From assembly GCA_014237925.1 (NCBI GenBank), contig JABACB010000006.1, forward strand, positions 1-62,448: 62,448 nt of DNA. The letters run 5' to 3'. The position numbers and the translations under genes were made by a program. The notes below the pieces were generated by a model that ran no database searches, had not been told where the DNA came from, and saw nothing but the letters and a program-made list of their open reading frames with translations. How positions within the stretch are numbered: the first letter of the stretch is position 1; every line of letters begins with the position of its first letter. The stretch comes from Alphaproteobacteria bacterium (lineage in GTDB: Bacteria; Pseudomonadota; Alphaproteobacteria; JABAAW01). This document shows, in pieces, positions 3,880-62,147 of this stretch.

Positions 3880-4885
3880 CGGGGCGGCGAGGGCGAGGGG
3901 AGAGGAGGGTGAGGGTTTGCGCGTCGGGGCATCGTTGAGAAGGCGTTTGGCGTTGCGCGAGCGTATCGTTTCGCGGCGTGTGCGACGGGGCAGGGATGCG
4001 GAGTTTCTTTTTCGCCATGCGGGCGAGTTGTTGGCGGACAAGTGGCTTGATTTGAAGCGGCCTGTCGAGCGTGTTGTGGCGCTCACGCCGCGCGACGGCG
4101 CTTTGTTGCAGGCTTTGGCGGAGGGGGGAGCTTTGCAGCGCATGGGTCAATTGACGCTGTGCGAGCCCTCGCGGCGTTTGGCGATGTTGTTGGAACAAAA
4201 CGCGGTGCGGCTTGTGCCGCGGGAGTTGCGTTCTCGGTTGCGCGTCAAGGTTTCTTTGGAGGACGAGGTTGAGCTGTTCGATGCGGCGCTGTCTTTCTTT
4301 TCGTTGCATTGGGAGCAGGACTTGTCGCGGTCTTTGACGACACTGGCGGCTTTGCTGAAGGCGGACGCACCTTTCTACGCTGTTGCGTTCGGCGAGGGGA
4401 CGCTCGGTGTTTTGGCGCAAACCTTGTTGAAAGCCGAATCGCGCTTGCGGCATCGTGTTTGCATGCGCGTGCCTAGTTTTCCTTCGCTGGAGCGTGCGGG
4501 CAATGCCATGCGCGACTTGCCTTTTATGCACCAGCCTTTTGTCGAAAGTTTTTGTGTCGAGGCGGACTACGAGAACCTGTGGGATTTGCTGAGCGACGTG
4601 CAGGCGATGGGAGAATCGGGGGCGCTCGCCGAGACGACGCCTTTGTCGAGGGAGGTGGTGGCGCTAGCGGACGCGCTGTATCCTCGTTCTAGGGGGCGAT
4701 TGTTGGCAGAGTTCCATGCGCTCGTGCTGCACGGCTGGACGGCATCGGCTCCTTCATCTTCGTCCTCCGCATCTTCGTCCTCAGCGTCTTCGTCCTCGGC
4801 GTCTTCGTCCTCAGCGTCTTCGTCCCCGGCGTCTTCGTCCTCGGCGCACAAGGGAGGAGACAAGCGTCGGGAAGGCGAGCGTTAG
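3872..4885 (+). CDS. Diverged SAM-dependent methyltransferase-like protein (BioC/NDUFAF5-like) with Ser-rich tail
   Basis: FLF..(A)..L.D, FD...S..SLHW..DL, FG..TL..L and L..D...MGE motifs typical of the family; start uncertain. Confidence 0.7.
   Translation: MSDGAARARGEEGEGLRVGASLRRRLALRERIVSRRVRRGRDAEFLFRHAGELLADKWLDLKRPVERVVALTPRDGALLQALAEGGALQRMGQLTLCEPSRRLAMLLEQNAVRLVPRELRSRLRVKVSLEDEVELFDAALSFFSLHWEQDLSRSLTTLAALLKADAPFYAVAFGEGTLGVLAQTLLKAESRLRHRVCMRVPSFPSLERAGNAMRDLPFMHQPFVESFCVEADYENLWDLLSDVQAMGESGALAETTPLSREVVALADALYPRSRGRLLAEFHALVLHGWTASAPSSSSSASSSSASSSSASSSSASSSPASSSSAHKGGDKRREGER
4757..4846. repeat. 15 bp tandem repeat x6 encoding (SSSSA)n
   Basis: tcttcgtcctc(a/g/c)gcg units in frame at the 3' end of the methyltransferase. 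Confidence 0.95.
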
Positions 4886-4888
4886 GGG

Positions 4889-6358
4889 CTAGGGTTGGGG
4901 TTGGGCGAGGGCTTGTTCCAGCCGTTCGAGGGTTTGGCGTTTTCCAAGCACGGCGATCACTTCGCTGATGTCGGGCGAATCCATGCGTCCTGTGCAGACG
5001 GCGCGCAGGGGTTTTGCAAGGTCGGCGAATCCGAGCGACAGGCTCTGCGCTGTTTGGCGCATCGTTTGCGCGAGGGCGTGGGCTTGCCAGTCTGCGTCGT
5101 TCGTCTGCGCGAGGTTCTCGTCGAGGCGGGTCAGGGCTTGGGGCGGAAGGTTGAGAAGTGCCTCGTCCCAAACCTTTCGCGCCGTGGCATCGGGCAGAGG
5201 GAGGGTGGGCTTCTCGAAGTAGAAGCTGCCGAGCGCGACGAGGTTTTGTAGCGTTGTTGCGCGCTGCCGCAAGCCTTCGAGTCCTTGAAAGAATCGACGA
5301 CGGGCATCGGAGTCCGCCGAGGCGGGCAGGAAGGGTTGCAAGCGCGCTTGCAGATCGTCGAGCGGCAGAGTTCGCAGGTAGTGTGCGTTCAGGTGTTCGA
5401 GGCGTGCGTAGGAGACGCGCGCGGGTGCGGCGTTCAAGCCTTTGAGGTCGAACAGCTCGATGGCTTGTGGCATCGAGACGATCTCCAAGTCTTTGTGTCC
5501 CCAGCCGAGACGGAGAAGGAAGTTTGTCAGCGCTTCGGGGAGAAACCCTTGCTTGCGAAACTCTCCGATGGAACTTGAGCCGGTGCGTTTCGAAAGCTTG
5601 TGGCCGTCTTCGTCCAGCACCATGGGGATGTGCGCGTAGGCGGGTTTCGCCTGTTGTGTCGAGAAGATGTTGGCGCTTAGGCAGGCGTTGTAGAGGGCTT
5701 GTTGGCGGAAGGTGTTGGTGAGGTGGTCGTCGCCGCGGACGATGTGGGTGATGTTGGAATCGTAGTCGTCGACGACGACCGAGAGCATGTAGGTGGGGGA
5801 GCCATCGGAGCGGAGCAGGACGAAGTCGTCGATTTGCGCGTTTGGGGAGGTGATCGTTCCTTTGACGCTGTCGTCGAGGGTCGTTGTTCCTTCGTGCGGC
5901 ACTTTGAGGCGCACGACGGAGCTGGCATCGGCGTTGCGAGGCGCGTCCTTATGGGATTTTTCGCGCCAGGGGCTTTTGAAGACATCGCCGCGGTTGCGCG
6001 CTTCGGTGCGGGCTGCGTCTTTGCTGTCGCGCAAGACGCTGTCGTAGCAGCGGTAGGCTTTGCCTGCTTCGAGAAGTTGATCAGCGACTTTTGTGTGTTT
6101 GTCGTGTCTTGCGGATTGAAGAACATGCTCGCCGTCCCACTCGATACCGAGCCACTGCAGGTCTTGGACGATGCTTTCTGTGTTGTCGTCGATGGTTTGT
6201 CCGTTCGAGGGCGGATTCTTCTTGTCGGTGTCCTCGATGCGAAGGAGGAACTTGCCGTTGTGTTTTTTGGCGTAGAGAAAGTTGTAAAGAGCCGTGCGGG
6301 CACCGCCAAGGTGCAAACCCCCCGTGGGGCTTGGGGCAAATCGTACGCGGGTAGTCAT
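4889..6358 (-). CDS. gltX: Glutamyl-tRNA synthetase
   Basis: RFAPSPTG, HLGG (HIGH), LLRIEDTD, HIVRGDDH and KLSKR (KMSKS) motifs. Confidence 0.97.
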   Translation of the reverse strand: MTTRVRFAPSPTGGLHLGGARTALYNFLYAKKHNGKFLLRIEDTDKKNPPSNGQTIDDNTESIVQDLQWLGIEWDGEHVLQSARHDKHTKVADQLLEAGKAYRCYDSVLRDSKDAARTEARNRGDVFKSPWREKSHKDAPRNADASSVVRLKVPHEGTTTLDDSVKGTITSPNAQIDDFVLLRSDGSPTYMLSVVVDDYDSNITHIVRGDDHLTNTFRQQALYNACLSANIFSTQQAKPAYAHIPMVLDEDGHKLSKRTGSSSIGEFRKQGFLPEALTNFLLRLGWGHKDLEIVSMPQAIELFDLKGLNAAPARVSYARLEHLNAHYLRTLPLDDLQARLQPFLPASADSDARRRFFQGLEGLRQRATTLQNLVALGSFYFEKPTLPLPDATARKVWDEALLNLPPQALTRLDENLAQTNDADWQAHALAQTMRQTAQSLSLGFADLAKPLRAVCTGRMDSPDISEVIAVLGKRQTLERLEQALAQPQP

Positions 6359-6433
6359 CGAATCAGCGTGGCATCAGTGTTACGCACCAGTATGAGACGC
6401 ATGTGTTACATCGCCTCAACCTTCAACGCCAAG

Positions 6434-6744
6434 CTATAACACGAACCAGATTGAAAGTAAAGTCTCAACCCAGCTGGTTTTCTTGGCGCGTCTGTTGCGC
6501 GAGCGCGTGCTTGTCAAGAAGCACAAGCGTGCGCGTAACAGAGATGTCACAGACGGACAAATCTATCCCAACCTCCTCTCTATCCCAACCTTCTCCTGCC
6601 TTCTGCCAATCCTCTCGTCCTGTCATGCGCAAAATCGTCGCCTCTGTGACGCGAGCCAGCTTGAAAGTAAAGTCTCAACCCAGCTGGTTTTCTTGGTCGT
6701 CTGTTGCGCGAGCGCGTGCTCGTTGCGCGCAACAGACATGTCAG
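6434..6744. repeat. Diverged direct repeat pair (6434-6548 and 6644-6744), each containing a hairpin
   Basis: ttgaaagtaaagtctcaacccagctggttttcttgg is identical at 6451 and 6661; both copies carry a tctgttgcgcg...cgcg(c/t)aacaga stem. Confidence 0.9.
6555..6640 (-). pseudogene. Duplicated fragment of the rsmA 3' region
   Basis: Translates TILRMTGREDWQKAGE...GIDLS versus TILRMAGREDWRKAGEDAGIDLS in RsmA (6926-6996). Confidence 0.85.
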
Positions 6745-6856
6745 TAGAACTTCGCATCGCTCATCGATGCTTCGCACTATTGTTTGTTCATTTTTTTGCG
6801 CCCATCTTTTTGCGCCTATTTTTTTCCACCCCCACCCATTTCTTACTGCTCTTGTC

Positions 6857-7744
6857 TTACTGCTCTTGTTTTGCTGCTTTTGCCCAGCGTAGCCACTCTT
6901 CTCCCCTCGCCTCCCCCGCCCGTCTGGACAAATCTATCCCAGCGTCCTCCCCCGCCTTCCGCCAATCTTCTCGCCCCGCCATACGCAAAATCGTCGACAT
7001 CTTCTTCCTGCGATACGAAAACAATAGCCCCGTCATCTCCGCCACAAGGGCATACTCCTCGCTGGTCGCCGTGTGTTCTCGCTCTCCGCGAGGAAAGAAT
7101 CGCACCACACACGAAACAACCTTAGGCACAGGAACAAAAGAAGACGGCGCAACATCAAAACATCGCTCGACACGAGACCGCAACCCCACCAACACCGAAA
7201 GCCTCCCGTAAGCGGCATCGCCGACCTCCGCCGTGATACGCTCGGCAACCTCGCGCTGAAACATCAACACCATCACCTTATGGCGACCTTCCCCCTCGCG
7301 CTCTAGCAACCTTCGCAAAATCACCGTACCTACGCTGTACGGCAGGTTGCCTACAATAACCGCGTCGTCTTCGCCGTCTCTTTTTTGAAGGATTTTTCCA
7401 TAATCCATCGTTCTCGCATCTCCCTCCACCACCTCCAATTCCCTTCCCTCGCTTAGCCCCTCGCTCCATCGTCTTAAGAAATCCGCTAGCCTTGCTTCCG
7501 CCTCGATGGCAACGATCCGCCTAGCTCCCTGGTGAAACAGCGCGCGCGTCAAAGCCCCTGCGCCTGCGCCAATCTCCACCACCGGCGACGAAGAAAGCCC
7601 CCCCCCGACATCACAACTTTGGGCAATACGCCTCGCGCAATCCGCATCTCTCAAGAAGTTCTGTCCGCGACTCTTCTGTCTGGCGCTCGCTTGCAACAAG
7701 CCGGCAGAGCGCAGCAGAGCCTGCATGTCCTCGTTCTCCTTCAA
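6857..7744 (-). CDS. rsmA: 16S rRNA m6,2A dimethyltransferase
   Basis: GQNFL, VEIGAGAGALT, GNLPY, MFQREVAERI and YGRLSV motifs; follows pdxA. Confidence 0.95.
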   Translation of the reverse strand: MKENEDMQALLRSAGLLQASARQKSRGQNFLRDADCARRIAQSCDVGGGLSSSPVVEIGAGAGALTRALFHQGARRIVAIEAEARLADFLRRWSEGLSEGRELEVVEGDARTMDYGKILQKRDGEDDAVIVGNLPYSVGTVILRRLLEREGEGRHKVMVLMFQREVAERITAEVGDAAYGRLSVLVGLRSRVERCFDVAPSSFVPVPKVVSCVVRFFPRGEREHTATSEEYALVAEMTGLLFSYRRKKMSTILRMAGREDWRKAGEDAGIDLSRRAGEARGEEWLRWAKAAKQEQ

Positions 7745-7792
7745 GCTTCTTGCCAGGAATCAGAATTCGGAGTCAGAATTCATGGGCAGAGC

Positions 7793-8950
7793 TCACGCGG
7801 CTTGTTTCGGGTTGTGCGAGCTTGTCCTCTTGTCGTCCCCCCCTTGTCGCCCCCTTGTCGTCTCTTTTGTCGTCTCTTTTGTAATTTCTTTTGTAATTTT
7901 TTGGGTCGTCCTTTCGCGCCTCGTCTTCGCTATCCGCCACGCCATCGCCAAAGCAGCGGTAAGGCTGCCCGCATCGGCAATCCCTCGTCCGACAATGTCG
8001 CGTGCCGTACCATGGTCGGGCGAACAGCGCACGATCGGCAACCCCAGCGTGATGTTGACCGCTTGTTGATTCGACAGCAGCTTCAAGGGAATCAAACCCT
8101 GGTCGTGATACAAGGTCAAAGCGCAGTCGAAAGTCTTGCGCAGGCGGGGCAGGAAAAGGCTGTCCGAAGGATGCGGTCCTGTCGTGGCGATCCCCTCCTT
8201 GCACAAGCGAGCAACGGCGGGTTGTAGAATTGTCTTCTCCTCGTCGCCGCACGCTCCGCCCTCTCCCGCGTGAGGGTTCAACCCCGCGACCGCCAGCCGA
8301 GGTTGCTGGATGCCGAAATCTTCCTTCAACGCTCTGTGAGCCATGCGCGCAGCCTCCAGCACGCTCGTCTTGTCCAGCATCGCCACCGCGTGTCGCAGCG
8401 CGACATGCCGCGTGACAGGCAAGGTGCGCAGCCCGCGCCACGCGAGCAGCATTCCGTATCGCTCGACCCCCAAGGCTGTGGCGATGTATTCCGTATGTCC
8501 CCAAAGGACATGCTCGTCGTGGGAGAGAGCCGAAGGATTTCGAGGCTGTTCGGAAAAAATCTCCTTTTCGACAGGAAGCGTGACGACCCCGCAAGCCTTC
8601 CCCTCGGCGCACAAGCGCACGGCTGCATCGATCGACGCACGCGCTGCTAGCCCCTCGTCCAACAAGGGCAGGGCGAGCGGGAAGTGCGCGCGCGCCTCCT
8701 CGACCCCCGACACTCTGCGACAAGGTATAGAGAAAGCTTCGAAGTCTTCTTTGCGTCCGCCGAGCGACAGGAAGCAAGGCGATTCTTTGCCGCCCTTGCC
8801 CTGATGTCGCTGCGCCCAAAAGCGCCATGCCTTAGAAAGAACCTCCGCACCGATGCTTTCACGGCTACCCGCGGTGACGACCAACGGAGGCTGAGGTGCA
8901 TCAGGAGATAATCCGCAAGGAAACTGGGAAGATGATTCGGAAGATAGCAT
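7793..8950 (-). CDS. pdxA: 4-hydroxythreonine-4-phosphate dehydrogenase
   Basis: GHTEY, GLNPHAGEGG, YHDQGLIPLK and N.TLGLP..R.SPDHGTA motifs. Confidence 0.96.
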   Translation of the reverse strand: MLSSESSSQFPCGLSPDAPQPPLVVTAGSRESIGAEVLSKAWRFWAQRHQGKGGKESPCFLSLGGRKEDFEAFSIPCRRVSGVEEARAHFPLALPLLDEGLAARASIDAAVRLCAEGKACGVVTLPVEKEIFSEQPRNPSALSHDEHVLWGHTEYIATALGVERYGMLLAWRGLRTLPVTRHVALRHAVAMLDKTSVLEAARMAHRALKEDFGIQQPRLAVAGLNPHAGEGGACGDEEKTILQPAVARLCKEGIATTGPHPSDSLFLPRLRKTFDCALTLYHDQGLIPLKLLSNQQAVNITLGLPIVRCSPDHGTARDIVGRGIADAGSLTAALAMAWRIAKTRRERTTQKITKEITKETTKETTRGRQGGDDKRTSSHNPKQAA

Positions 8951-22585: not shown

Positions 22586-23221
22586 TCACTCGTAGGATGC
22601 CTCCGAGCTGTAGCTCCTGTCGGAGTCTGTCCCCGCGCTTTCGGGAGCATCTGCCGTAGGCAGTCCGCCTTCGGAGAGAGGGCGTCTTTGTTCTACTTGC
22701 GCCTGCTCTTCGCTCGTCTCTTCGCTCGTCTCTTCGCTTGAATCTTCGCTTGTCTCGCGCGGCGACTCTGCGCTCTGCGCAGAAGAAGCGGCAGGTTCGG
22801 AAGAAGCATACCCTTCGCGCGCAGGCCCCTCAGGTGCGACAGCCCAGCGACGGCGCGAGTTCGCGCGCGGCGCAAAACGGCGATAGCCGCCGTCGCCCTC
22901 TCCCTCGTCAGAATCGCTATGACTATGGCGTTCCAAGGAGCGTTCGGGCGTGCTTTTGTCTCGATCGAAGGTTTGCAAGCGCAGGTAGTGTTCGGCGTGC
23001 TGAAGAAGGTTTTCCGTCAGAATCTTGTCGCCGCTGGCAGCCGAATCGCGGGCCAGCTGCACATACTTGTCGTGGATTTGGATGGGTTTGCCGCGCACGC
23101 GGAAGTTTGCAGGACCGTTCGATTCAAAGTTGCGTCCTGATCCTGAAGAGGAGGGGCTCCGTCCGCGTGGGGAGTAGCCGCCGCCGTTACGGGGGCGGGA
23201 GGGTCTTCGTTGACTGTACAT
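22586..23221 (-). CDS. DUF4167 family protein
   Basis: FESNGP..RVRG...QI.DKY..LARD...SGD....EN..QHAEHY.R; downstream of prmC. Confidence 0.9.
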   Translation of the reverse strand: MYSQRRPSRPRNGGGYSPRGRSPSSSGSGRNFESNGPANFRVRGKPIQIHDKYVQLARDSAASGDKILTENLLQHAEHYLRLQTFDRDKSTPERSLERHSHSDSDEGEGDGGYRRFAPRANSRRRWAVAPEGPAREGYASSEPAASSAQSAESPRETSEDSSEETSEETSEEQAQVEQRRPLSEGGLPTADAPESAGTDSDRSYSSEASYE

Positions 23222-23293
23222 GGCTCGTAGGGTGGAGGGGGAATATTCTCCAAAAGAGGATAGGCGAGAGAGGAGCGATCGCGCAAGGTTTTT

Positions 23294-24229
23294 TTAAGAA
23301 GAATGCCTTCTCAGAACGGAGACTCTGTCGCGTCCTGCCAGATCGGGAATCGTGCGGAGGTGGCGGAAGCGTTTCCGTTGCGCAAGGGCTTTGAGAACGC
23401 TCGTTTGGCGGGGCGCGTGTTCAAGGACAAGAAAGCCGCCGCAGCGCAGCGTCTGTCGTGCGTAGCGGAGGATAGAGCGAAAACTGCGCATGCCGTCGAA
23501 GCCGCCGTCGAGCGCGAGGGGAGGGTCGAAACGCGCAACTTCGCGCGAGAGCATGATGCGCTCGACGCGACGGATGTAGGGGGGGTTGGCGAAGAGGAGG
23601 TCGAGGCGTTGGCTTGAAAGATGTTTTTTGCAAGACTTTCTGTCGCTCCAGTTTTGGCGAAAGAATCGGACGGGAAGTTTTCTTGGCAAGCCTTGTGCGT
23701 TGTGTCGTGCTGCGACAAGGGCTTGGGCGGAGATGTCGGAGGCTAGTAGGCGAGGTCTCCGAGGTTTGCAGAAGAGCTTCGCTGCAGGGTTTGCGGCAGG
23801 GTTGGGGAAGAGCGTGGCAGCGAGGGCGAGCGTGATGCATCCGCAGCCGCAGCCGAGTTCCAAGACGCTGCGAACAGGGTGCGGAGAGACGATAAGCTCG
23901 AGGACAGCCGCGAGCAGTGTTTCGCTGTCGGCTCTTGGAATGAGGCAGGCTTTGTTCAGACGAAAGGTCAAAGAAGCGAACTCGCGCGAGCTTGTGATTC
24001 TGGCGAGGGGTTCGCGTGTTGCTCTGCGTTCGACGAGGCGCGTCAGGCGGAGCGCGAGCTTAGGCGTGAGGTTCGAGGAGGCGAGCAGGGGGAGGGGGTT
24101 GTTTGTCGATGCTCGCCAGAGCGCGTCGAGTTCTGCTTGGGGGTCGGAGAGGCTGGCTTCTTTTAGGCGGCGCAACCATTGTTGACGGAGACGGAGGATT
24201 TCTTGGCTTGTGAGTTGTGCGTGATGCAT
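23294..24229 (-). CDS. prmC: Release factor glutamine methyltransferase
   Basis: RR..REPLA.I, LIPR.DSE, ELGCGCGCI, NPPYI and P.LALDGG.DG motifs; ATG 24229 directly after prfA. Confidence 0.93.
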   Translation of the reverse strand: MHHAQLTSQEILRLRQQWLRRLKEASLSDPQAELDALWRASTNNPLPLLASSNLTPKLALRLTRLVERRATREPLARITSSREFASLTFRLNKACLIPRADSETLLAAVLELIVSPHPVRSVLELGCGCGCITLALAATLFPNPAANPAAKLFCKPRRPRLLASDISAQALVAARHNAQGLPRKLPVRFFRQNWSDRKSCKKHLSSQRLDLLFANPPYIRRVERIMLSREVARFDPPLALDGGFDGMRSFRSILRYARQTLRCGGFLVLEHAPRQTSVLKALAQRKRFRHLRTIPDLAGRDRVSVLRRHSS

Positions 24230-24237
24230 TCGGGGTA

Positions 24238-25356
24238 TTAAGATTTTTGGGTTTGTTGGGTTTGTCGTTGGAGCGTTTCGATCTGCTCTGCTTTTCGTGC
24301 GGCTTCGAGAGGATTGAGTAGGAGCTCGAGTCCGTCGCCTTGCATGATTCGGTCGAGTTTGTAGATCGTGAGCGCGATTCGGTGGTCGGTGATTCGGTTC
24401 TGCGGAAAGTTGTAGGTACGGATTCTTTCGGAGCGGTCTCCGCTTCCTATCTGTGTTTTTCGTGTTGCAGCGAGTTCGGCGTTTTGTGTTTCGCGGATAT
24501 GTCGGTGGACTCTGGCGGTGAGAACTTTGAGTGCTTTCTCGCGGTTGCGGTGTTGGGATTTTTCGTCTTGGCATTGGACAACTTGTCCGGAGGGGATATG
24601 GGTGATACGGATGGCGGAATCGGTCGTATTGACATGTTGTCCTCCCGCACCTTGTGCGCGGAAGGTTTCTGTTCGGAGGTCTTGTTCCAAGAGGGGTTGT
24701 TGTGTTTCCGTCGATTGCGGGAGGATGGCGACGGTCGCGGCGGAGGTATGGATCCTGCCTTGTGCCTCGGTTTCGGGAATGCGTTGGACGCGGTGGACGC
24801 CTGATTCTACGGAGAGTCTTGCAAACGCTCGAGGTCCTTCGATGGTAGCGACAGCTTCTTTAATTCCGCCTTGTTGTGTTTGTTGTGTTGAAACAGTTTC
24901 GAACTTGTAGTTGTTGTTTGCGGAGAAGCGTTGATACATGGTGAGCAGGTCGCTTGCAAAAAGAGCGGCTTCTTCTCCGCCTGTACCAGGGCGAATTTCA
25001 AGGATGGCGGTATTGGCGTTTTCTTCGTCTGTTGCGTTGAGCATGAGGTTTTGGATATGTTGCAGGCTGTCGTTTTGTTGTTGTTCTAATGTTGAGATTT
25101 CGTCTGAAGCGAGGGCTTTGAGCTCTTTGTTAGATTCGGTGAGAAGATCTTGTGCGTCGGATTTTTGTCGGGCGAGGTTGTTGTAGGAGCGGATGGCGTT
25201 GCAGAGGGGGGTTAGGTGAGCGAGTGTTTTGGCAAGCGTGATGCGCTCAGAGTTAGGGAGGGTGGGGTTGTTGAGGGCGTGTTGTGTCGCTTCCTCTTGG
25301 CGGAGGGTTGTAGCGAAGCGTTCTTGCCAAAATTCGTCTGAAGGGGAGGAGGACAT
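24238..25356 (-). CDS. prfA: Peptide chain release factor 1
   Basis: [22 protein letters not shown] (PxT), GAGGQHVN and RTYNFPQ.R.TDHR motifs. Confidence 0.97.
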
Positions 25357-25624
25357 GCTTTCTTATACTACGGATAGCTTTGTCGGTGTTTGTTTTTTTT
25401 GAGTTGTTTTTTTAGGTAGGGTAGATTCCCCCCTCCTCTTTTCTCCGCTCACAGAAAAACATGGTGTTGTGGCGGAGGAGGCGTGGTGTTTTGAAGTTAA
25501 GCGAAACAACATGCGGATGACTTGTTTTGCGAGGTTGTATTTTCTGCCAGAGTGCTGGGTTGGGAGCGCATGCGTTACAAAAATATCATCTTTACCGAGA
25601 GGGTGTTTTTTCTGTGAGCGGAGG

Positions 25625-27004
25625 TTATGGATCTTCGTTTTTGTTGCCAAAGTTATCCACCAACCAGTTATTAAAATTCACCTCAGAATTGTGGAGATCA
25701 AAATCGAATACAACATCTCCTGTAGATACATTCGTTAATTTGATTTGATATGGCTGACCTTCTTTTCTAGCAACGAAAGCAATATAATCTGGTTTTGTTT
25801 TTTCTGCTTCTTCGTAAGAAGAAGATTCAAAAAAAGCAGCCCCAGAAAAATTATTTTTACAAAACTCATTTCTTAAATCTTCAATGAGATTAACAAGATC
25901 TCTTCCATAATCAGATGCTTTAAAAGAGTCGTTTCCTATTAAACATATTTTTGTTATACGAGGGTCAGCAGTTTGAATTTTTTCGTTTTCTTGAAATTCC
26001 AACAAACGTTCTAACCCTGCAGCCCACCCAATGGCACTAACAGGATTTTTTCCTCCCAACTCCACGCATAATCCGTCATAACGTCCCCCCGCCAACACCG
26101 TTGCCTGCGCCCGTTCCGTCCTATTTTCCACAAATTCAAAAACAAACCCATTGTAGTAATCTAACCCACGCACAAGCCTTGTGTCGCAAGAATATGGAAT
26201 TTTTAAACTTTCAAAAGACTCTTGAACTTTATCAAAATTATCTTGTGAAATTTTATTTAAGACAAATGGAGGAGCTTTTTCTATCGCCTCCTGGTCGACA
26301 GAATTTTTAGAATCCAAAATACGCAAAGGGCTACGCTTCAATCGTTCGATACTCTCGTCCGAAAGAGCCTCGTTCTTTGCGTATTGTTGGAAATGCTGTC
26401 TTAAAACCTCGCTGTAACGCGCCCTCTCCTCCGTATTGCCAAGCCAATTGATCTTAAGCTCAATAACATCTTTTAATCCCAATTTTATAAGAAAACGCCA
26501 AGCGCAAGCGACAACCTCTACTTCTTTGTCGATATTGTAGACATCGCGCGCGGGCTTATGTAGACACTCTACGCCGCATTGATGAAATTGACGAAACCTC
26601 CCCCTTTGCGGTCTCTCCCTGCGAAACATCGCTCCTTCGTAAAACCACCGCTGCGGCAAAGTCTGCGTCAACCCATTCTCGATCAACATTCGCACGACCC
26701 CCGCCGTCCCCTCAGGACGCAAACACAACTCATCGCTACGATCGTTCTTGTCCTTCTTGTCCTCAAACGAATACATCTCCTTCATCACAACATCACTATC
26801 TAACCCCAACGAACGCCGATACAAACTCGCCCGCTCCAAGATAGGAATCTCCACACGCTCGAATCCATACAAGCGCGCAACATCCTCCGCAATCCGCGCA
26901 ATCCTCCGTAGCCCCGCCGCACGCGCAGGCAAAAAATCCTGCATCCCACGAACCCGACGAATAGGCTCAATCCTGCCTCGCTTCTTTTCGCTCTTCTCGC
27001 TCAT
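25625..27004 (-). CDS. hisS: Histidyl-tRNA synthetase
   Basis: RGM.D, KEMY.F, LRPEGTA, FRRERPQ.GRFRQF.Q, LVRGLDYY, AGGRYD and GWA.GLERL motifs. Confidence 0.96.
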   Translation of the reverse strand: MSEKSEKKRGRIEPIRRVRGMQDFLPARAAGLRRIARIAEDVARLYGFERVEIPILERASLYRRSLGLDSDVVMKEMYSFEDKKDKNDRSDELCLRPEGTAGVVRMLIENGLTQTLPQRWFYEGAMFRRERPQRGRFRQFHQCGVECLHKPARDVYNIDKEVEVVACAWRFLIKLGLKDVIELKINWLGNTEERARYSEVLRQHFQQYAKNEALSDESIERLKRSPLRILDSKNSVDQEAIEKAPPFVLNKISQDNFDKVQESFESLKIPYSCDTRLVRGLDYYNGFVFEFVENRTERAQATVLAGGRYDGLCVELGGKNPVSAIGWAAGLERLLEFQENEKIQTADPRITKICLIGNDSFKASDYGRDLVNLIEDLRNEFCKNNFSGAAFFESSSYEEAEKTKPDYIAFVARKEGQPYQIKLTNVSTGDVVFDFDLHNSEVNFNNWLVDNFGNKNEDP

Positions 27005-27045
27005 CGCCGTTGTTCACACACAAAAAGATCCCCCCACACCTCCCC

Positions 27046-27339
27046 CTAAAGCATCCGAAACGCATACTCCCGAATCAACTGCCCCAAAAACCACAACCCA
27101 ATCAACGCGATCACCGGCGAGAAATCAACCCCCGAAACCGAAGGAATAACACGACGAATCGGACGCAACAAGGGCTCGGTCAAACGATACAAAACCTCCA
27201 ACACCGAGCGCACAACAGACGAATGCGCGTTGATCACGCCAAACGCCAACAGCCAACTCAACACCGCAACCGCAATGATGCACCAGCCGTACAAACGCAA
27301 CAGCAACAACACAAGATTGATCAAAGAATGCATAAGCAA
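27046..27339 (-). CDS. YggT family membrane protein
   Basis: LSWL.AF.VIN, LTEPLLRPIRR.IP and GVDFSP motifs. Confidence 0.93.
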   Translation of the reverse strand: MLMHSLINLVLLLLRLYGWCIIAVAVLSWLLAFGVINAHSSVVRSVLEVLYRLTEPLLRPIRRVIPSVSGVDFSPVIALIGLWFLGQLIREYAFRML

Positions 27340-27371
27340 ACCCTAGCGAAAACCCCCCTCGACACGCAAGC

Positions 27372-27413
27372 AAAAAAAGAGGACGCGGGCAACAAAACGA
27401 AGCCCGCGTCCTC
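27372..27413 (-). terminator. Rho-independent terminator of the outer-membrane protein gene
   Basis: 12 bp perfect stem gaggacgcgggc/gcccgcgtcctc followed by T7 on the minus strand. Confidence 0.9.
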
Positions 27414-27457
27414 AGATGTTCCCAAAAGAGCTAGCAATCGAGAACTGGCAATGAAAG

Positions 27458-28567
27458 TTAGTAGATGTAGCCCAACGCGAAAGTCGGGCTGGCGTAGAAG
27501 ACCTTCTCAGGTTCGACAGTGAGAGAAGGGATTCCTCCTCCAAAATCGTACTTCACTTCGCCAGGATCGATGACACCAAGCCCCGTCTTGACCGTGAGGT
27601 TGAACCCGTTCTTCAGGTAGTAGCTGATGCCGAGAACACCGCCGCCGCCGATGCCGCCTTCGGTCGAGACGCTCGGCAAGGAAGGAATCAAGCTGGCATA
27701 CCCCCCTTGCGAAACATACAGCTCGCCTCCGACGATGAAGCCCAGCCCAGGCATACCGCTTCCCAGCACATATTCGTACGCCGCTGACACGAAGAAAGCC
27801 GTAGCATCCCCCTTGGCTTTGGAAAGATCATCGATGCCGTAGCCTGCTTGCAGACCCTGTTCCAATGCAGCGATTGCCGCGGCTCTTGCTGTGGCTCTTG
27901 CCTCGGCTATTGCTGCCTGTCCTTCCTCCGAGGCTATTGCCCCGGCTATTGCTGCCTGTCCTTCCTCCGAGGCTATTGCCTCATCACGGATTCCTTGGAA
28001 GACTTCGTTGATGATTTCTTGCTGAGCTTCAGGAGGCAGAGAAGTAAATGCCGGAGCTCCCGGCTGTGCGCCTGCGCCCAACGCATAAGCACCAGCAGCA
28101 ATAGCACCATCGACTTGTGCTTGTAATGGCTCACTTATTCCGGCACCGGCGAGGGCTTGAATGGTACCATCTCTAGCAGCTTGGAGACCACCATCAGCAA
28201 CTCTTTCCTCAGCAATATCCCTAGCAACGCCCTCAGCAATATCCTGAGCAGCACCTGCAGCAGCGTTTTGAATTCCGCTACGAAAGTCATCGTAGCTCTC
28301 CCCGTTCCATGTGGCTTTGGTGAGGTTGGCCCCAGGGCTTGTTCCTGCAGCGCCTGCCAAGCCGATGCGTAGCACCGAACCTTTCGGACGATGCTCGTCT
28401 TGTCCCTGGAAGCCGAACAGAAACTCTCCGCCCATGCCGTGCAACTGGAAGCCCACCGAGGTGTAACCCACGTTGAAGCCGAACTGCAACCCCTTTGCAG
28501 GAGACGCAAACAAACCCGAAAAACCCGCCGCCAAGCAAGCGAGGGCAACAACAATTCCTTTTCTCAT
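27458..28567 (-). CDS. Putative ~8-stranded outer-membrane beta-barrel with large Ala-rich helical insert
   Basis: Signal peptide (..SPAKG), alternating amphipathic strands, terminal aromatic residue (LGYIY), AAGGAG RBS and own terminator. Confidence 0.75.
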   Translation of the reverse strand: MRKGIVVALACLAAGFSGLFASPAKGLQFGFNVGYTSVGFQLHGMGGEFLFGFQGQDEHRPKGSVLRIGLAGAAGTSPGANLTKATWNGESYDDFRSGIQNAAAGAAQDIAEGVARDIAEERVADGGLQAARDGTIQALAGAGISEPLQAQVDGAIAAGAYALGAGAQPGAPAFTSLPPEAQQEIINEVFQGIRDEAIASEEGQAAIAGAIASEEGQAAIAEARATARAAAIAALEQGLQAGYGIDDLSKAKGDATAFFVSAAYEYVLGSGMPGLGFIVGGELYVSQGGYASLIPSLPSVSTEGGIGGGGVLGISYYLKNGFNLTVKTGLGVIDPGEVKYDFGGGIPSLTVEPEKVFYASPTFALGYIY

Positions 28568-28800
28568 CGGAAAAAACTCCTTTTTGTGATGATGTTGTTC
28601 GTATCAGAACGATCGTCCCCCTGTTGATCCCCCTGTGTCTCGCTTCGCTCCAAGTTCCCCCGCAGTCCCCCCGCTCCAAGCTCCCTGCAAGCACGACACA
28701 AGAGGCACTTGTAGCACCCTCGTCTTCCCCTCGTCAACGCCAAATGAAAAAAGACATGGGAATCCGTAGAATTCGTCGAGGATCGATCAAGGTTGATCGA

Positions 28801-29295
28801 TCAAGTTTCGAAAAATGTGCTCGGATTGCTCGGTACAGGCAAATCGATGCCCCCCTCTCCGAAGCCGCCGAAAAGCCCCGCCAGCAATGCCACCACGAAA
28901 AAGACAACATTCATGACGCACAAACCCTTGACGACAGCAGACCAAAAGGGCTGCTTCGCGCCGTTCTTGTGCGCCGAGCGCCACAACCCCACCAGCTGCC
29001 ACACAGAGATCCCCACCGAAAACACGCCCAACAGCACAACGCCTGTCGGCGAGAGCATGATGCGTCGTAATAGGATCCCCGCTCCCAAGTTGACGAAGAA
29101 GCAGTTGATCCAAAAGGACTCGGCAAGCGACAAATTCCCGCGCCAATGGTCTTGAACCCACGCGCACAAGGAAAGCCACACGCGCCGCCAAAAGTCTTCC
29201 CCATGGAATTTGTTGGGGAATTTGTTGGGGAATTTGTTGGGAAATTTGTTGGGGGACATGTCTGCCATCGGTGTTAAAACAATCTGCGGCGGCAA
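28801..29295 (-). CDS. Hypothetical membrane protein with (PNKF)x4 repeat
   Basis: WRG.LSL..SFW and W..VG.WRSA motifs, about 3 TM helices; start uncertain. Confidence 0.65.
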   Translation of the reverse strand: MPPQIVLTPMADMSPNKFPNKFPNKFPNKFHGEDFWRRVWLSLCAWVQDHWRGNLSLAESFWINCFFVNLGAGILLRRIMLSPTGVVLLGVFSVGISVWQLVGLWRSAHKNGAKQPFWSAVVKGLCVMNVVFFVVALLAGLFGGFGEGGIDLPVPSNPSTFFET

Positions 29296-33319: not shown

Positions 33320-33354
33320 GGCTGTTCGAGCTGTCGCGTTTGGGAGGGCTTGGA

Positions 33355-34718: not shown

Positions 34719-34752
34719 GGGCGCGGTGTGAGAAATTGGTTTCCAAGTTGTT

Positions 34753-35034: not shown

Positions 35035-35162
35035 ATGACAAAGTAGATGATAAAGCAGATATGGTTTGCAAAGTAGATATGATTGGCAAAGTAGATATGA
35101 TTGACAAAGTAGATATAATATAGAGAGTAGATATAACATAGAGAGTAGATATAACATAGAGA
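35029..35162. repeat. Degenerate 12/18 bp tandem array (aaagtagatatgattg type)
   Basis: About 8 units sharing the AGTAGAT core. Confidence 0.85.
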
Positions 35163-35346
35163 GGCAAGCAATATGATCGCTCACTTCTTGCCGTGTGCGT
35201 CTGTGTAGATGGAGTAGATACCCTCCGCGATAACGCAGGGGATAGCATGACCTTGCGATTCTATGGTGCTTACGAAGCAGCAGATTTCACCGACTTCTTC
35301 TACGCGCATCGAGGCGGACAAGGCCAGCGTGCGTCCTCTTTTCCCT

Positions 35347-36798
35347 CTACATCGTGCGCTCTTCGATCGTCGCCCCCGGAAAAGCCTCGCGCAACTTCTC
35401 CTCGTAAGCACCTCCTCTCTCCTCTTCTTTCTTCTCCTCTTCTTTCTTTTCTTCTTTATTTTCTTCTTTATTTTTTTGCCCCCTTGCCAGCCTCGCCAAG
35501 ACCTCCCTCGGCAAGGGCATGCCCGCAGCGCAAACTAGGCGAACAACAAGCATATCCAACGCGGAGCGAGGATGCGGCGCCAAGCGCAACTCTTCGTACC
35601 CCCGCAACGCGATCTGCCACAAGCGCGACAGGGACGCCAACGACAAGCCCTGCGCCAGTTTTTCTCCTCGCTCTCGATCGCTAGGCTCCAACAACAAGGC
35701 AGTCCCTCCCTCGACCTTCAAGCGCGAAAGACGATGCAACCGCTCCATCAGCTCGCGCAACAACCGCTCGGCTTGAGCCCCTTTCAAGATCAAGGCATCC
35801 AAACAAGTCAAGGCTTCGGGAAGGTCTCCCTTCACGATCGCCTCCAGCAAATCGTACAAGGCATGCCCGTCCGATAAAAACAACATACGCCGCACGCGCT
35901 CTAATACGATGCTCCGCCCCTCGCTCTCCACCATCGCACAATCCAACAACGACAAGCCGTCGCGCACCGAACCCTCTGCCGCGCGCGCGATCGCCAAAGC
36001 CGCCTCGCGCTCGATCTGCCAGCCCTCGCGCTTGCTCACAGACACATAGTGCGCCGCCAAAGTTTCGCTATCCAGCCGCGTCAGCTCCAAGCGCAAACAA
36101 CGAGACAACACCGTCAGAGGAACCTTTTCAACCTCGGTCGTGGCGAACAGAAAACGCAAGTGCGGCGGTGGCTCCTCCAATGTTTTCAACAGCGCGTTGA
36201 AGGCTGCGCGCGACAACATGTGAACTTCGTCGATGATGTAGACGCGACACGGCATCGACACAGGACGATAACCCGCGCCGTCGACGATCTCTCGCACGCC
36301 GTCGACCCCTGTGTGCGAGGCGGCGTCGATCTCGACCACGTCGATCACCTCCCCCCGCGCCATCGCTTCGCAAGACGAACAAGCGCCGCAAGGATCGACC
36401 TCCTTCCCCCTGCCCCTGCAATTCACCGCGCGTGCGATCAGGCGCGCCATCGTCGTCTTGCCCGTGCCGCGCGGTCCCGAGAGCAGAATCGCGTGATGCA
36501 ACCGCCCGCTCGACAAAGCGTTCTCGACGATCCTGCGCACCTGATCTTGTCCGATCAAATCTGCGAACCTTCGAGGACGATAGGCACGCGCAAGCACAAG
36601 ACGTTCTCCTGCTACCGACAGGGCTTTCGACTTAACTTTCGGCTCTATTATTGACGCGTCCTTGGCGGACGTCGCCGCGTCCTTGTCGGACGTCGCCGCG
36701 TCCTTGTCGGACGTCGCCGCGTCCTCTGTGGACGGAAGAGGAGGCAAGGCTTGCTCTGGCGCACTCTTCTCCGTTGCGCTTTTCTTCGTCTCGTTCAT
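35347..36798 (-). CDS. dnaX: DNA polymerase III subunit gamma/tau, C-terminally shortened
   Basis: LAR.YRP..F..LIGQ, GPRGTGKTT, PCG.C.SC, EIDAAS, IIDEVHML, SRC and GS.RD motifs; ATG 36798 chosen because ffs lies upstream. Confidence 0.95.
   Translation of the reverse strand: MNETKKSATEKSAPEQALPPLPSTEDAATSDKDAATSDKDAATSAKDASIIEPKVKSKALSVAGERLVLARAYRPRRFADLIGQDQVRRIVENALSSGRLHHAILLSGPRGTGKTTMARLIARAVNCRGRGKEVDPCGACSSCEAMARGEVIDVVEIDAASHTGVDGVREIVDGAGYRPVSMPCRVYIIDEVHMLSRAAFNALLKTLEEPPPHLRFLFATTEVEKVPLTVLSRCLRLELTRLDSETLAAHYVSVSKREGWQIEREAALAIARAAEGSVRDGLSLLDCAMVESEGRSIVLERVRRMLFLSDGHALYDLLEAIVKGDLPEALTCLDALILKGAQAERLLRELMERLHRLSRLKVEGGTALLLEPSDRERGEKLAQGLSLASLSRLWQIALRGYEELRLAPHPRSALDMLVVRLVCAAGMPLPREVLARLARGQKNKEENKEEKKEEEKKEEERGGAYEEKLREAFPGATIEERTM
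36655..36725. repeat. 21 bp tandem repeat x3 encoding DAATSDK
   Basis: In frame in the DnaX N-terminal extension. Confidence 0.95.
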
Positions 36799-42337: not shown

Positions 42338-42449
42338 CTCGGCAAAAAACTCGGAAAATTAACTCGGCAAAATAACTTGACAAAAAACTTGACAAAAAAC
42401 TTAGTGTAAAAATTCTTGTAAGCCGTTGATATTGCTGAAGAAATTCTGT

Positions 42450-42465
42450 TGGCACAAGTCTTGCG
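42450..42465 (+). promoter_or_regulatory. Sigma-54 (-24/-12) promoter
   Basis: TGGCAC-AAGTC-TTGC with exact GG-N10-GC spacing, in an intergenic region behind an AT-rich tract. Confidence 0.7.
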
Positions 42466-42561
42466 ATGAAGAGAGAAATGAGACAAGGGCGAACTCCTTC
42501 GTGGAGTCCTGCACGGGCTTCGAAGATGCCGAGAGAAGAGAGCAGAACAGAGGTGGCGAGT

Positions 42562-42780
42562 ATGTCGGAAGATACGGTGTTGTTGGCGGAGCCTGCGCCG
42601 AGCGCAGATTTCGAGGGAGCGTTGCAAGATTTGGAAATGTTGGCGCACGAGGAGCTGCATCGTCTGCATGCGTCTTCGGATGAAGAGGCGTTGAACGGCG
42701 CATCGGTCGCGCCGACCTTGGCGTGCTTGGTCGAGCGGCTGGCGGAACTGGGAAGGGAGGCACGACCGCAACGAAGGTAA
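42562..42780 (+). CDS. Small acidic helical hypothetical protein (72 aa)
   Basis: GAGGTGG RBS-like site before ATG 42562; upstream sigma-54 motif; no family recognised. Confidence 0.55.
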   Translation: MSEDTVLLAEPAPSADFEGALQDLEMLAHEELHRLHASSDEEALNGASVAPTLACLVERLAELGREARPQRR

Positions 42781-42987
42781 TATTCAAGGACAGCGAAGCG
42801 TGATGAGAAGACACGCTTGGCAGTGAGGTTCGCGCGTGTGGTTCCTTCTTCTCTCTTGCCCTTCCATGCGTGCGACAGTTGGCCGGCTCCCCCGACAAAA
42901 ACAGAACAACGGGGGGGCCGGTCTTTTTTTAAATTCTTGAGATAAACCTTAGAGATAGACAAAGACTACACGCTTCGTGAATGTTTC

Positions 42988-55938: not shown

Positions 55939-55993
55939 GATGGCAACGCGTATCAGCTCTTTGCAACAACCGCAACGATAGATTTTTTTCGCA

Positions 55994-56284
55994 TCATCCG
56001 CGTTTTCCTTTGAGGAAACAAGACAAGTCTTCCTCTGTCAAGCCTGCGGTTTTCAAGTTGTTTTTGACGATCCTTCCTTTGATTCTATGCTCTCTAGGAT
56101 GAGGCACAGGGAGAGGACGTGATACGCCCTGTTTTGACAGCATCGCGTGACTTCCTGTCGTCCTTGTCTGTTTGAAGCCGTGTGCTTCCAAAAACCTAAT
56201 GAGGTCACGCGAACGAACTGCCCCCGACTTTCTATGCGTCTTGCTGCCTGTCGCCCGTTGCCGAGGAGGTTTTGCGATGCTCAA
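55994..56284 (-). CDS. hicA: HicA-family toxin
   Basis: LI.FLE.HGF...R..GSH...(K)......VPHP.......V...LK.AG motif. Confidence 0.85.
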   Translation of the reverse strand: MSIAKPPRQRATGSKTHRKSGAVRSRDLIRFLEAHGFKQTRTTGSHAMLSKQGVSRPLPVPHPREHRIKGRIVKNNLKTAGLTEEDLSCFLKGKRG

Positions 56285-56751
56285 GCGACAACGGCTGCGT
56301 CGGAAAAGATTTGCGTCGTCACCCCGTGCATCGTCTCGTATTGGGAGGAAGATTTTTTAGGAGGCTTATGCATTTCTCGAAAGCCGCAATCCTCCAGAAC
56401 GGCATCGAGCGTCTCTCGCTCGGCACAAGATTCCAAGAAAAGTGCGACGGCTTCTCGAATGTTTGCGCGCGCTTTCTGCTCGTCGTCGCCGCAACTGACG
56501 ACATCCAGCGCAGGGCATTCTCCGATGATGTCCCCCTCGTCCTCGCAGACCTTTATTTTCAGATCGAAGACAACTAAAGGAATAGCCCGCTTCTTCTTTT
56601 TTTCTTTCACAGGAGACATCACAACGACAAACTGCTCGCCCTTCTTCCAAATCGCCACCGAATCCAAATGATCAGGAGGAAGGGAGGAAGGGAAGTTCTG
56701 GATATTCGAGGAGGGAAAGTTCTGTCTGTTCATGGCGATCCCAAAACACAA
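56281..56751 (-). CDS. hicB: HicB-family antitoxin (short); start probably downstream of 56751
   Basis: CPALDVVSCGD...A..NI.EA..LFLE motif; ATGA overlap with hicA. Confidence 0.85.
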   Translation of the reverse strand: MCFGIAMNRQNFPSSNIQNFPSSLPPDHLDSVAIWKKGEQFVVVMSPVKEKKKKRAIPLVVFDLKIKVCEDEGDIIGECPALDVVSCGDDEQKARANIREAVALFLESCAERETLDAVLEDCGFREMHKPPKKSSSQYETMHGVTTQIFSDAAVVA

Positions 56752-60887: not shown

Positions 60888-61106
60888 CACACCAATAGGG
60901 GACAACCTTCATTGACGAAAGGGCGTTGCCGCGCCGATGAGGAGAGAGAGCCGTCTTGCTCGTCTTGTAAAAAACGAGACGAGAGACAAGAGACGAGCGG
61001 TAGATAGCGTAACCGAGTGTCACGAGCGAGCGTAGATCGAGCGTAGATTTAGAGCGAGTCTCTTTTTATCGCCCTCCCAAGCCGCCTTCCCTGAAGCAGT
61101 CTTCCC

Positions 61107-62147
61107 ATGTCCCCCCTCCGCCCGCTCATCCTCTTCGGTCCCACCGCCAGCGGCAAATCGCGCCTTGCCCTCGCCCTCGCCCGAGCCCTCGCACACACCA
61201 CCACAACCCACATCGTCAATTGCGACTCGCTCCAACTCTACACACACTTGCCCATCCTCACCGCCCAACCCTCTGCTGCCGACCAAGCCGAAACGCCCCA
61301 CCACCTCTACGCCGTCGCCCATCCCTCTGAACGACTCTCGGCAGGGTTGTACGCAGAGAAAGCAACAGACCTGCTCCAACACCTCCAGCGCGATCACCCC
61401 TCCGATGCCGTCATCTTGTGCGGCGGCTCAGGACTCTATCTTAAGGCGCTGCTCGAAGGCTTGACCGAACTCCCACAACCCTCGCGCCGAGCCACACAAA
61501 AAATCCGCCGATGGCAGAAAGAACAGCGCGACCTCTATACGCTCCTACAACAACGCGACCCCGCAACCGCCGCCGCTCTCGCGCCACAAGACAAACATCG
61601 CATCGTGCGCGCGCTCGAATTCTACGAAACCTGCGGCGCGTCGCTCTTCGATGCTCGCAAGGGCGTCAAGCAATCCTCCCCCTTCGCGCAACAAGAAGAG
61701 CGACAGCCCTTGCTGATCTCGCTCACCCCCTGTCGAAAAATCTTGTACGCAGCGATCAACGCGCGCTTCGAACGCATGCTCCAACAAGGTGCCATCGAAG
61801 AGGTGCGCGCTCTCGAGGCAGAGAACGCCTTGCCTTGCGAAAGCCCCTTGCCTTGCGAAAGCCCCTTGCCTTGCGAAAGCCCTTTGCGTAGCGCGTTGGG
61901 CTTGAAAGAGATCGAAGCCTATTGCAGAGGAGAATCGTCCTGGCAAGCGATGGTCGAACGAGGACAGCAGAGGGTGAGAAATTACGCCAAAAGGCAGCTG
62001 ACTTGGATCCGCCACCAACTGCCTGGCAAGGCGTTGCTGCTGCAACGCCAGCTGACAGAATCGGTCGAAGAGGATTGCAACGGGGTTTGCCACGCGGTCG
62101 GGCAAGCTTGGAGCAAAGCTTCTTGCGCCGACAAGCCGTTCGTGTAG
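61107..62147 (+). CDS. miaA: tRNA dimethylallyltransferase
   Basis: GPTASGKS, N.DS.Q.Y..L.ILTA.P, PHHL, GG.GLY and R.YAKRQ.TW motifs. Confidence 0.96.
   Translation: MSPLRPLILFGPTASGKSRLALALARALAHTTTTHIVNCDSLQLYTHLPILTAQPSAADQAETPHHLYAVAHPSERLSAGLYAEKATDLLQHLQRDHPSDAVILCGGSGLYLKALLEGLTELPQPSRRATQKIRRWQKEQRDLYTLLQQRDPATAAALAPQDKHRIVRALEFYETCGASLFDARKGVKQSSPFAQQEERQPLLISLTPCRKILYAAINARFERMLQQGAIEEVRALEAENALPCESPLPCESPLPCESPLRSALGLKEIEAYCRGESSWQAMVERGQQRVRNYAKRQLTWIRHQLPGKALLLQRQLTESVEEDCNGVCHAVGQAWSKASCADKPFV
61828..61881. repeat. 18 bp tandem repeat x3 encoding LPCESP
   Basis: In frame within miaA. Confidence 0.95.

Follow-up and report, generated by a model that had tools for sequence, protein, structure and literature searches.

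The 62,448-nt stretch of DNA analysed here (hereafter, the window) is a contig of an alphaproteobacterial genome whose plus strand switches repeatedly, over kilobases, from G+T-rich to A+C-rich. We found that the switches occur at clusters of short repeats that lie between genes, are present in many copies, form hairpins, and are of the repetitive extragenic palindromic/bacterial interspersed mosaic element (REP/BIME) type. The skew is symmetric about the cluster and independent of the directions of transcription and replication, and amino-to-keto changes (from A or C to G or T) are sped up on one strand and slowed on the other. We lean towards recurrent outward strand replacement, starting at the repeat clusters, as the origin of the skew. 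The effect reshapes roughly a third of the genome, protein composition included.

The window (contig C376) belongs to a 409-contig, 1.97-Mb metagenome-assembled genome (MAG) with 56% GC, designated G000, from an organism described as a marine alphaproteobacterium, and comparisons were centred on relatives of the same genus. The relatives of its PrfA protein likewise assign it to the Alphaproteobacteria. One relative, G003, consists of a single contig of 1,902,689 bp and was analysed in full. For a second relative, G004, 800 kb were analysed; the gene identity between G003 and G004 is 91%. A sister-family genome (G007; GC 0.37) was represented by a sample of 100 kb. The flip at a spacer of the window was calculated as the G+T fraction on the left minus that on the right, using 750-bp flanks outside the spacer (binomial standard deviation, 0.026). 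Multi-copy repeats in G003 were defined as exact 16-mers with eight or more copies, and their detection depends on this exactness. Gene calls were our own and are imperfect: a plain codon-usage gene finder under-called skewed genes in comparison with the caller that replaced it, and the second caller still misses some genes, such as prmC.

Sharp flips of at least 0.2 occurred 117 times in the G+T-to-A+C direction and 34 times in the opposite direction in G003, and flips of at least 0.3 were found 16 times in the former direction and never in the latter. A multi-copy repeat lay within 300 bp of 109 of the 117 flips (compared with a fraction of 0.20 for random positions), of 47 of the 48 flips of at least 0.25, and of all 16 flips of at least 0.3. 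The same was true of one of the 34 opposite flips. The repeats made up 617 loci and occupied 115 kb of the 1.90-Mb chromosome. Their units were hairpins of about 23–95 nt, each present in about 50–205 copies in both orientations and mixed in mosaic clusters; the largest families had 205, 181, 99, 91, and 91 copies, with plus and minus orientations about equal. The consensus units folded into hairpins of up to −38 to −50 kcal/mol, and several different units stood side by side at the top foci. No high-copy insertion sequences with genes were found among the 32 long repeat loci. In G003, a stretch of 5.7 kb without genes (476373-482083; L112-L113) carries a 34-nt unit repeated 87 times in one orientation and looks like a CRISPR array.

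Among the 1,400 gene boundaries of G003, 209 had at least 100 repeat bases, and the mean flip at these spacers was +0.18 between co-oriented genes (n = 87), +0.14 between divergent genes (n = 27), and +0.20 between convergent genes (n = 95). The mean flip at repeat-free spacers ranged from −0.026 to +0.016 across all orientation classes, and the flip increased with the number of repeat bases in a dose-related trend. A sequence-only reading of the window had proposed fixed foci that impose a symmetric, strand-specific substitution bias regardless of gene orientation, and the flips of repeat-bearing spacers in every class agree with this proposal; the identity of the foci as clusters of multi-copy hairpin repeats goes beyond what that reading had recognized. 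Some of this indifference to gene orientation follows automatically, because a G+T-rich block followed by an A+C-rich block is its own reverse complement.

Transcription-associated asymmetry, or the codon or amino acid usage of particular genes or operon ends, could also be invoked, since 51 of the 117 flips lay at convergent gene ends, although only 207 of the 1,400 boundaries are convergent, and operon-end meta-profiles rose to 0.56. However, convergent spacers free of repeats showed no flip (−0.01 and +0.016), repeat-bearing divergent spacers did flip (+0.14, as given above), and fourfold-degenerate sites within 0–500 bp were equally skewed in genes pointing toward a cluster and away from it (G+T, 0.721 vs 0.693). 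In addition, the ribosomal-protein cluster was neutral, for which reason expression level was rejected as a cause. An operon effect, with the coding strand A+C-rich at the 5′ end and G+T-rich at the 3′ end, was likewise considered and dropped, because the repeats explained the flips and fourfold sites were blind to the coding strand. We regard this family of explanations as very improbable, and the earlier judgement that neither transcription nor codon bias is the cause stands, as the repeats account for the flips in every orientation class.

A check at synonymous sites showed that the effect was largest at fourfold sites: across gene bins, the G+T fraction spanned 0.21–0.84 at these sites, 0.41–0.69 at codon position 1, and 0.41–0.62 at codon position 2. 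Fourfold sites were profiled around 231 G003 clusters on the 3′-facing strand, that is, the strand with its 3′ end toward the cluster, on either side. Toward the cluster, C fell from 0.33 to 0.15 and A from 0.178 to 0.14, while T rose from 0.16 to 0.30 and G from 0.325 to 0.446; the fourfold GC content fell from 0.66 to 0.57–0.60. The skew set in at the cluster edge, formed a plateau of about 600 bp, and returned to baseline by about 2–2.5 kb. The fading with distance that had been described for the window was also found there, where the skew was graded rather than flat and faded over about 2 kb. When genes were divided by replication side, fourfold G+T was 0.625 on the origin side and 0.593 on the terminus side; an offset of about 0.02 persisted unchanged at every distance and probably represents the skew due to chromosome replication. 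The polarity of the local skew is incompatible with outward transcription or replication from an origin-like site, and is that of a 3′-ended strand to the left and right of the cluster. The polarity that the sequence-only reading had assigned to the 3′-ended strand beside a break was thus borne out, and its order is that of the 5′ C to 3′ G single-switch mutation clusters that excerpts of PMC6786661 attribute to bidirectional resection in yeast.

Fourfold divergence between G003 and G004 was flat with distance from the cluster (0.170 at 0–500 bp vs 0.168 beyond 4 kb). The rates of individual changes were estimated by using a general Markov model for three taxa (G003, G004, and G000) at fourfold sites common to all three, with 10,152 sites in the near zone and 32,885 in the far zone (bootstrap standard deviations, 0.003–0.03). 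The far zone was strand-symmetric, which served as a sanity check of the model. On the 3′-facing strand of the G003 branch, C>T (near, 0.121; far, 0.039), A>G (0.105 and 0.046), and C>G (0.039 and 0.012) were 2–3 times faster near clusters, whereas T>C (0.021 and 0.055), G>A (0.020 and 0.042), and G>C (0.003 and 0.011) were 2–3 times slower. Total rates near and far were 0.094 vs 0.085 on the G003 branch and 0.090 vs 0.096 on a further branch. The G004 branch showed the same directions more weakly. These results indicate that the process is ongoing and proceeds without a rise in the overall rate.

Taken literally, the sequence-only reading implies repeated double-strand breaks at the foci, followed by resection and by spontaneous or enzymatic deamination of cytosines in the 3′ tails, which would add C>T changes. 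The polarity and symmetry of the skew fit such a process (compare the resection clusters described in the excerpts of PMC6786661), C>T and C>G were both about 3 times higher on the 3′-facing strand, the fourfold GC content fell toward clusters as described above, and an AddAB-like pair is encoded. On the other hand, added damage would not explain the 2–3-fold suppression of T>C, G>A, and G>C, and by our calculation, C>T added at equilibrium predicts a flux between C and T of about 1.6 times the baseline, against an observed value of 0.85 times. G000, G003, and G004 each have two genes of the uracil-DNA glycosylase (UDG) family. Together with the flat fourfold divergence, seen in the pairwise comparison and in the G003 branch totals alike, the suppressed reverse changes speak against deamination as added mutation, and we consider this explanation unlikely. 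Loss of uracil or mismatch repair was rejected as a candidate cause, since 19 of 21 relatives had UDG and 20 of 21 had MutS, with G000, G003, and G004 positive for both.

In the strand-replacement explanation that we favour, a cluster would be a recurrent entry or start point for replacement of the strand that has its 5′ end at the cluster. Replacement would run outward in tracts of 1–2 kb, and the 3′-facing strand would always be the template. Lesions or mispairs in the template (deaminated C and A) would then be fixed, and those on the replaced strand would be erased. Fixation on the template and erasure on the replaced strand would together account for the acceleration of some changes and the slowing of their reverses, with no rise in the overall rate. 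Possible routes are the action of the encoded AddAB-like pair, resecting 5′ to 3′ from a two-ended break; nick translation; the filling-in of gaps where polymerases had stalled at hairpins; and nick-directed mismatch correction. Breakage at the foci and the enzymes that would act there are inferred. The AddAB-like gene pair was found in all three genomes searched; its second open reading frame (ORF) in G003 (580070-580669) contains one in-frame TGA, and the G000 and G004 copies contain none. SbcD_C was detected in none of three genomes, a weak negative since only 5 of 14 controls were positive. According to excerpts of PMC2817692, BIME-2 elements of E. coli are strongly bound by gyrase and REPs bind DNA polymerase I, and a reference cited there states in its title that gyrase cleaves BIME-2 in vivo. 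By analogy with this E. coli binding, entry points at the clusters are plausible; nothing in these sources bears directly on the present genus.

The skew could also arise without breaks, if hairpins on both templates stall polymerases in each cycle and leave single-stranded gaps of about one Okazaki fragment that are filled later, thereby polarising damage and mismatch correction. Stalling would happen in each generation by construction, and hairpins forming on both strands would yield the symmetry. The distance between priming events is on the scale of 1–2 kb, which also counts in favour of stalling, and the many short tandem repeats of the window (92 TRF rows in 62 kb) are consistent with slippage or stalling. 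However, the equal amplitudes on the origin and terminus sides would need leading- and lagging-strand gaps that are equally long-lived, and the suppression of reverse changes would still need an erasure or correction step. We consider this explanation without breaks unlikely.

A bias in fixation rather than in mutation was also considered, in the form of strand-asymmetric biased gene conversion at recombination hotspots marked by the clusters, or of weak selection for G and T on the strand prone to be single-stranded. Changes that are faster toward G and T and slower away from them, with an unchanged total, are the classic signature of such a bias, and ComEC was found in two of three genomes searched (G000 and G003), so that uptake and recombination of foreign alleles are possible. 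Known GC-biased conversion, however, raises GC on both strands, whereas here the fourfold GC content falls and the bias is between keto and amino bases; to our knowledge, there is no base-specific repair that prefers T to C and G to A on a single strand. It is implausible that selection should act on synonymous sites by the tens of thousands. We rate fixation bias as quite unlikely.

The skew followed the repeats through lineage turnover. Flips in G003 and G004 were correlated (r = 0.98) across the 490 gene boundaries that are conserved in the two genomes. The 33 elements common to the two genomes had flips of 0.26 and 0.23, and six insertions specific to G003 had flips of about 0.04 and 0.03, indicating that new insertions carry no skew yet. 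Among 857 boundaries conserved between G003 and G000, those with an element in G003 and a spacer shorter than 60 bp, too small to hold one, in G000 (n = 13) had mean flips of 0.186 vs 0.038, and those with an element in G003 and a spacer of at least 150 bp in G000 (n = 42) had flips of 0.25 vs 0.123. From these contrasts, the skew tracks element-bearing spacers lineage by lineage. One clean lineage-specific focus is the spacer at 15992-16206 of the window, which contains tRNA-Val and has a flip of 0.01; its orthologue in G003 (1369181-1369388) contains a 108-base repeat and has a flip of 0.29.

Several points weigh against strand replacement at the clusters as the origin of the skew. In G003, 8 of the 117 flips had no detected repeat, and in G000, only 11 of 35 strong flips adjoined exact multi-copy 16-mers (random, 0.13), a low match rate that may reflect unassembled or diverged repeats; the strongest focus of the window, at 25.5 kb, is a unique spacer bounded by an inverted repeat only. 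On the G004 branch, C>T near clusters was only 0.062, against 0.057 far from them. The halved rate on the replaced strand would imply roughly one replacement per generation at about 230 sites, which is demanding for the double-strand-break route. By our calculation, fixation bias fits the paired rates about equally well. Finally, cause and consequence are not fully separated, since sites prone to single-strandedness could collect repeats.

Flips with the same polarity were found throughout the MAG of the window, where 35 flips of at least 0.2 ran from G+T-rich to A+C-rich and 12 ran in the opposite direction. The coding strand of prfA was A+C-rich in three genomes of the genus and less so in two others, and this was not seen in two other families. 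No flips of at least 0.2 were found in 80 loci (1.31 Mb) of other alphaproteobacteria, and none in the 100-kb sample of the sister family; the limit of the phenomenon outside the genus is a provisional one, drawn from this small sample and two 4-kb loci. In G003, 27–43% of the chromosome lies within 1–2 kb of a cluster, and proteins encoded near clusters were shifted toward residues of G/T-only codons (Gly, Val, Phe, Leu, Trp, and Cys). The global skew of G003 was ordinary and weak, its cumulative curve being lowest at 1,694,080 and highest at 727,676 (replichores of about 0.94 and 0.97 Mb), and the local skew was about ten times stronger. Among other regions of G003, one of about 25 kb (782-805 kb; L128-L129) consists of plus-strand genes whose coding strand is A+C-rich. 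It encodes a large terminase, a Mu-type portal, a tail tube, and a tape-measure protein, forming a prophage-like cluster with a DciA homologue nearby.

The origin of the window in a 409-contig MAG raises the possibility of an artefact, namely mis-assembly joins or small inversions between oppositely skewed replichores. The contigs of G000 were A+C-rich at their starts (mean G+T, 0.457) and G+T-rich at their ends (0.537) in 57 contigs tested, all of at least 4 kb; this bias indicates that assembly breaks sit at foci, and many repeat clusters of G000 are probably unassembled. However, the same flips were found at orthologous spacers in one-contig and four-contig relatives, the profile was graded, the global skew is far weaker than the local skew, and the reading frames are intact with Pfam matches. 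In particular, the flips at 25.5 and 35 kb recur at orthologous spacers of the closed genome of the same genus and are therefore not assembly joins. An artefactual origin seems to us extremely improbable.

In the window itself, 1-kb values of G+T on the plus strand fell from 0.671 (24501) to 0.343 (26501) around 25.5 kb, from 0.658 (33501) to 0.398 (35501) around 35 kb, and from about 0.60–0.64 (3501-5501) to 0.431 (6501) around 6.4 kb. Six switches had been named in the sequence-only reading, of which five were recovered as flips with 750-bp flanks: those at 6.4 kb (0.24), 25.5 kb (0.20), and 35 kb (0.275) were strong, and those at 42.9 kb (0.11–0.13) and 61.05 kb (0.14–0.16, one-sided) were moderate. 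The sixth, placed at 56.6 kb, had a flip of only 0.036 and was not supported (55939..56667). The G+T counts quoted for four 60-mers (43, 13, 47, and 13 of 60) were exact. Pfam matches also placed gltX, rsmA, prfA, and yggT on the minus strand, as had been claimed, and prmC as well; the minus-strand position of a hisS-like gene was assigned from its ORF and translation only. Pfam matches further showed that pdxJ and acpS, on the plus strand, converge on dnaX, on the minus strand, and that flgK and miaA are on the plus strand.

The first focus is the gltX/rsmA spacer (6359..6856; flip 0.24), which contains a unit of about 80 bp twice (6434-6514 and 6644-6723), a portion of this unit being a member of a multi-copy family, and a hairpin (6699-6710 / 6726-6737). 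By blastn, the spacer had 40 hits in G000 and 42 in G003. Its left flank (3880..6358) is G+T-rich on the plus strand and includes gltX, whose coding strand is A+C-rich, and its right flank (6857..8000; rsmA) is A+C-rich on the plus strand. Fourfold G+T on the plus strand was 0.69 in gltX vs 0.36 in rsmA.

The second focus, the prfA/hisS spacer (25357..25624), is bounded by a perfect 17-nt inverted repeat (25443-25459 / 25607-25623), and its DNA fold had a z value of −3.3. The spacer is unique in G000, where blastn gave no multi-copy match but only the self-hit. The G003 orthologue carries 141 bases of multi-copy repeat, and the flips were 0.25 in G003 and 0.21 in the window. On the left (22600..25356), the plus strand becomes gradually more G+T-rich, from 0.546 to 0.671, across prmC and prfA, both on the minus strand. 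On the right (25625..29000), it is A+C-rich, with a low of 0.343, across three minus-strand genes (the hisS-like gene, yggT, and the one that follows). Fourfold G+T on the plus strand was 0.78 in prfA and 0.68 in prmC vs 0.29 in hisS and 0.10 in yggT. The 3′ third of the hisS-like gene (25625-26000) is AT-rich (GC about 0.39–0.42) and less skewed than the sequence beyond it, and the same was observed in G003.

The third focus lies between the convergent genes acpS and dnaX (34719..35346; flip 0.275) and contains an 18-bp tandem array with GTAGAT (35030-35163) and a segment (35208-35295) with a few copies elsewhere. In G003, the orthologous spacer contains 147 repeat bases and flips by 0.40. 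The plus strand is G+T-rich on the left (33000..34718; pdxJ and acpS, plus strand) and A+C-rich on the right (35347..36500; dnaX, minus strand), with fourfold G+T of 0.69 in pdxJ and 0.77 in acpS vs 0.36 in dnaX. Of the two moderate foci, one is a spacer between convergent ABC ATPase genes identified by Pfam (42338..42987) with a 12–13-bp tandem array (42329-42402). The other, the flgK/miaA spacer (60888..61106), is one-sided, with skew on the miaA side only (fourfold G+T on the plus strand, 0.32), and has three copies of GTAGAT at 61000-61048.

The positions given for GTAGAT in the sequence-only reading were right, but the hexamer, which had been offered as a weak hint of a shared focus motif, proved to be merely a component of some repeat units. 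It is over-represented both in the window (29 copies vs 6.8 expected) and in the elements of G003 (105 vs 37 expected). It was rejected as a focus motif, as 9 of the 29 copies in the window lie within one tandem array and it forms a piece of some units only.

Short tandem repeats are unusually numerous in the window, as the TRF count given above indicates. Their periods are 12–18 bp with 3–9 copies, several are 98–100% identical, and they occur in spacers and, where the period is divisible by three, inside genes (for example, 16038-16160, 33369-33432, 46467-46524, 50911-50965, and 51815-51919). This abundance may reflect frequent slippage or template switching in the lineage. A UDG-family domain lies at 53762-54211 on the minus strand, in an open frame reported as 643 aa that overlaps, in another frame, the start region of an aminotransferase gene (54775-55938). 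Rfam matched only two tRNAs in the window.

The local skew has practical consequences. It breaks the prediction of replication origins from GC skew, depresses the performance of gene finders based on codon usage, and coincides with contig breaks in MAGs. More generally, a very large genome-wide compositional effect is tied here to small non-coding repeats. It can be read as the evolutionary trace of a polar DNA transaction at these hairpins, for which a tract length and characteristic rates can be given. How REP-like repeats act on DNA in vivo, a matter long debated, becomes testable, and if the interpretation is true, this would be the first measurable in vivo DNA transaction for repeats of the REP/BIME kind. 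More tentatively, clusters of this kind may be landmarks from which one strand is replaced outward nearly every generation. They would thereby create, besides the asymmetries due to replication and transcription, a third kind, which in this genus would govern the base composition and amino acid usage of about a third of the genome; we are somewhat inclined to doubt so broad a statement.

Like the REP/BIME elements of enterobacteria and pseudomonads, the repeats described here are short, GC-rich, imperfect palindromes that form stem-loops, occur in tens to hundreds of copies in both orientations, and are arranged in intergenic mosaics. The associate of those elements, the REP-associated tyrosine transposase (RAYT; Y1 tyrosine transposase, PF01797), was found in none of three genomes (G000, G003, and G004) by a search whose control was positive in 6 of 14 named genomes, and we therefore term the present elements REP/BIME-like. 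No kilobase-scale skew gradient beside REP/BIME-like repeats was described in the full-text literature searched, the coverage of which leaves out most subscription journals.

Replication skew shares with the local skew the enrichment of G and T on one strand, and the local foci have the polarity of a terminus. However, replication skew has one switch and is flat over a replichore, whereas here 117 sharp switches are graded over about 2 kb and symmetric with respect to fork direction. Transcription skew, in which the coding strand is G+T-rich, involves the same base classes on a gene-sized scale, but the coding strand is irrelevant here. A hotspot of GC-biased conversion would be expected to show a GC rise on both strands, as opposed to the fall in fourfold GC and the contrast between G+T and A+C observed at the clusters.

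With the yeast resection clusters, as far as the excerpts of PMC6786661 describe them, our foci have the order of changes in common, with C altered to the left and G altered to the right on the top strand, and C>T and C>G rise together in the rates of G003. According to the same excerpts, the yeast clusters arise somatically as bursts of hypermutation and depend on an added deaminase, whereas here an evolutionary equilibrium is seen at fixed sites. Clusters caused by resection damage would be expected to show an elevated mutation density; here, divergence is flat and reverse changes are suppressed.

In vertebrate mitochondrial DNA, a gradient of skew is tied to the time spent single-stranded, and the two systems share a strand asymmetry that is graded by distance from a fixed landmark of DNA synthesis. 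Mitochondrial genomes are small and have one gradient each, linked to strand-displacement replication, as opposed to hundreds of two-sided gradients on a bacterial chromosome. Set beside these systems, the present finding is a mutational strand asymmetry whose anchor and geometry are both new.

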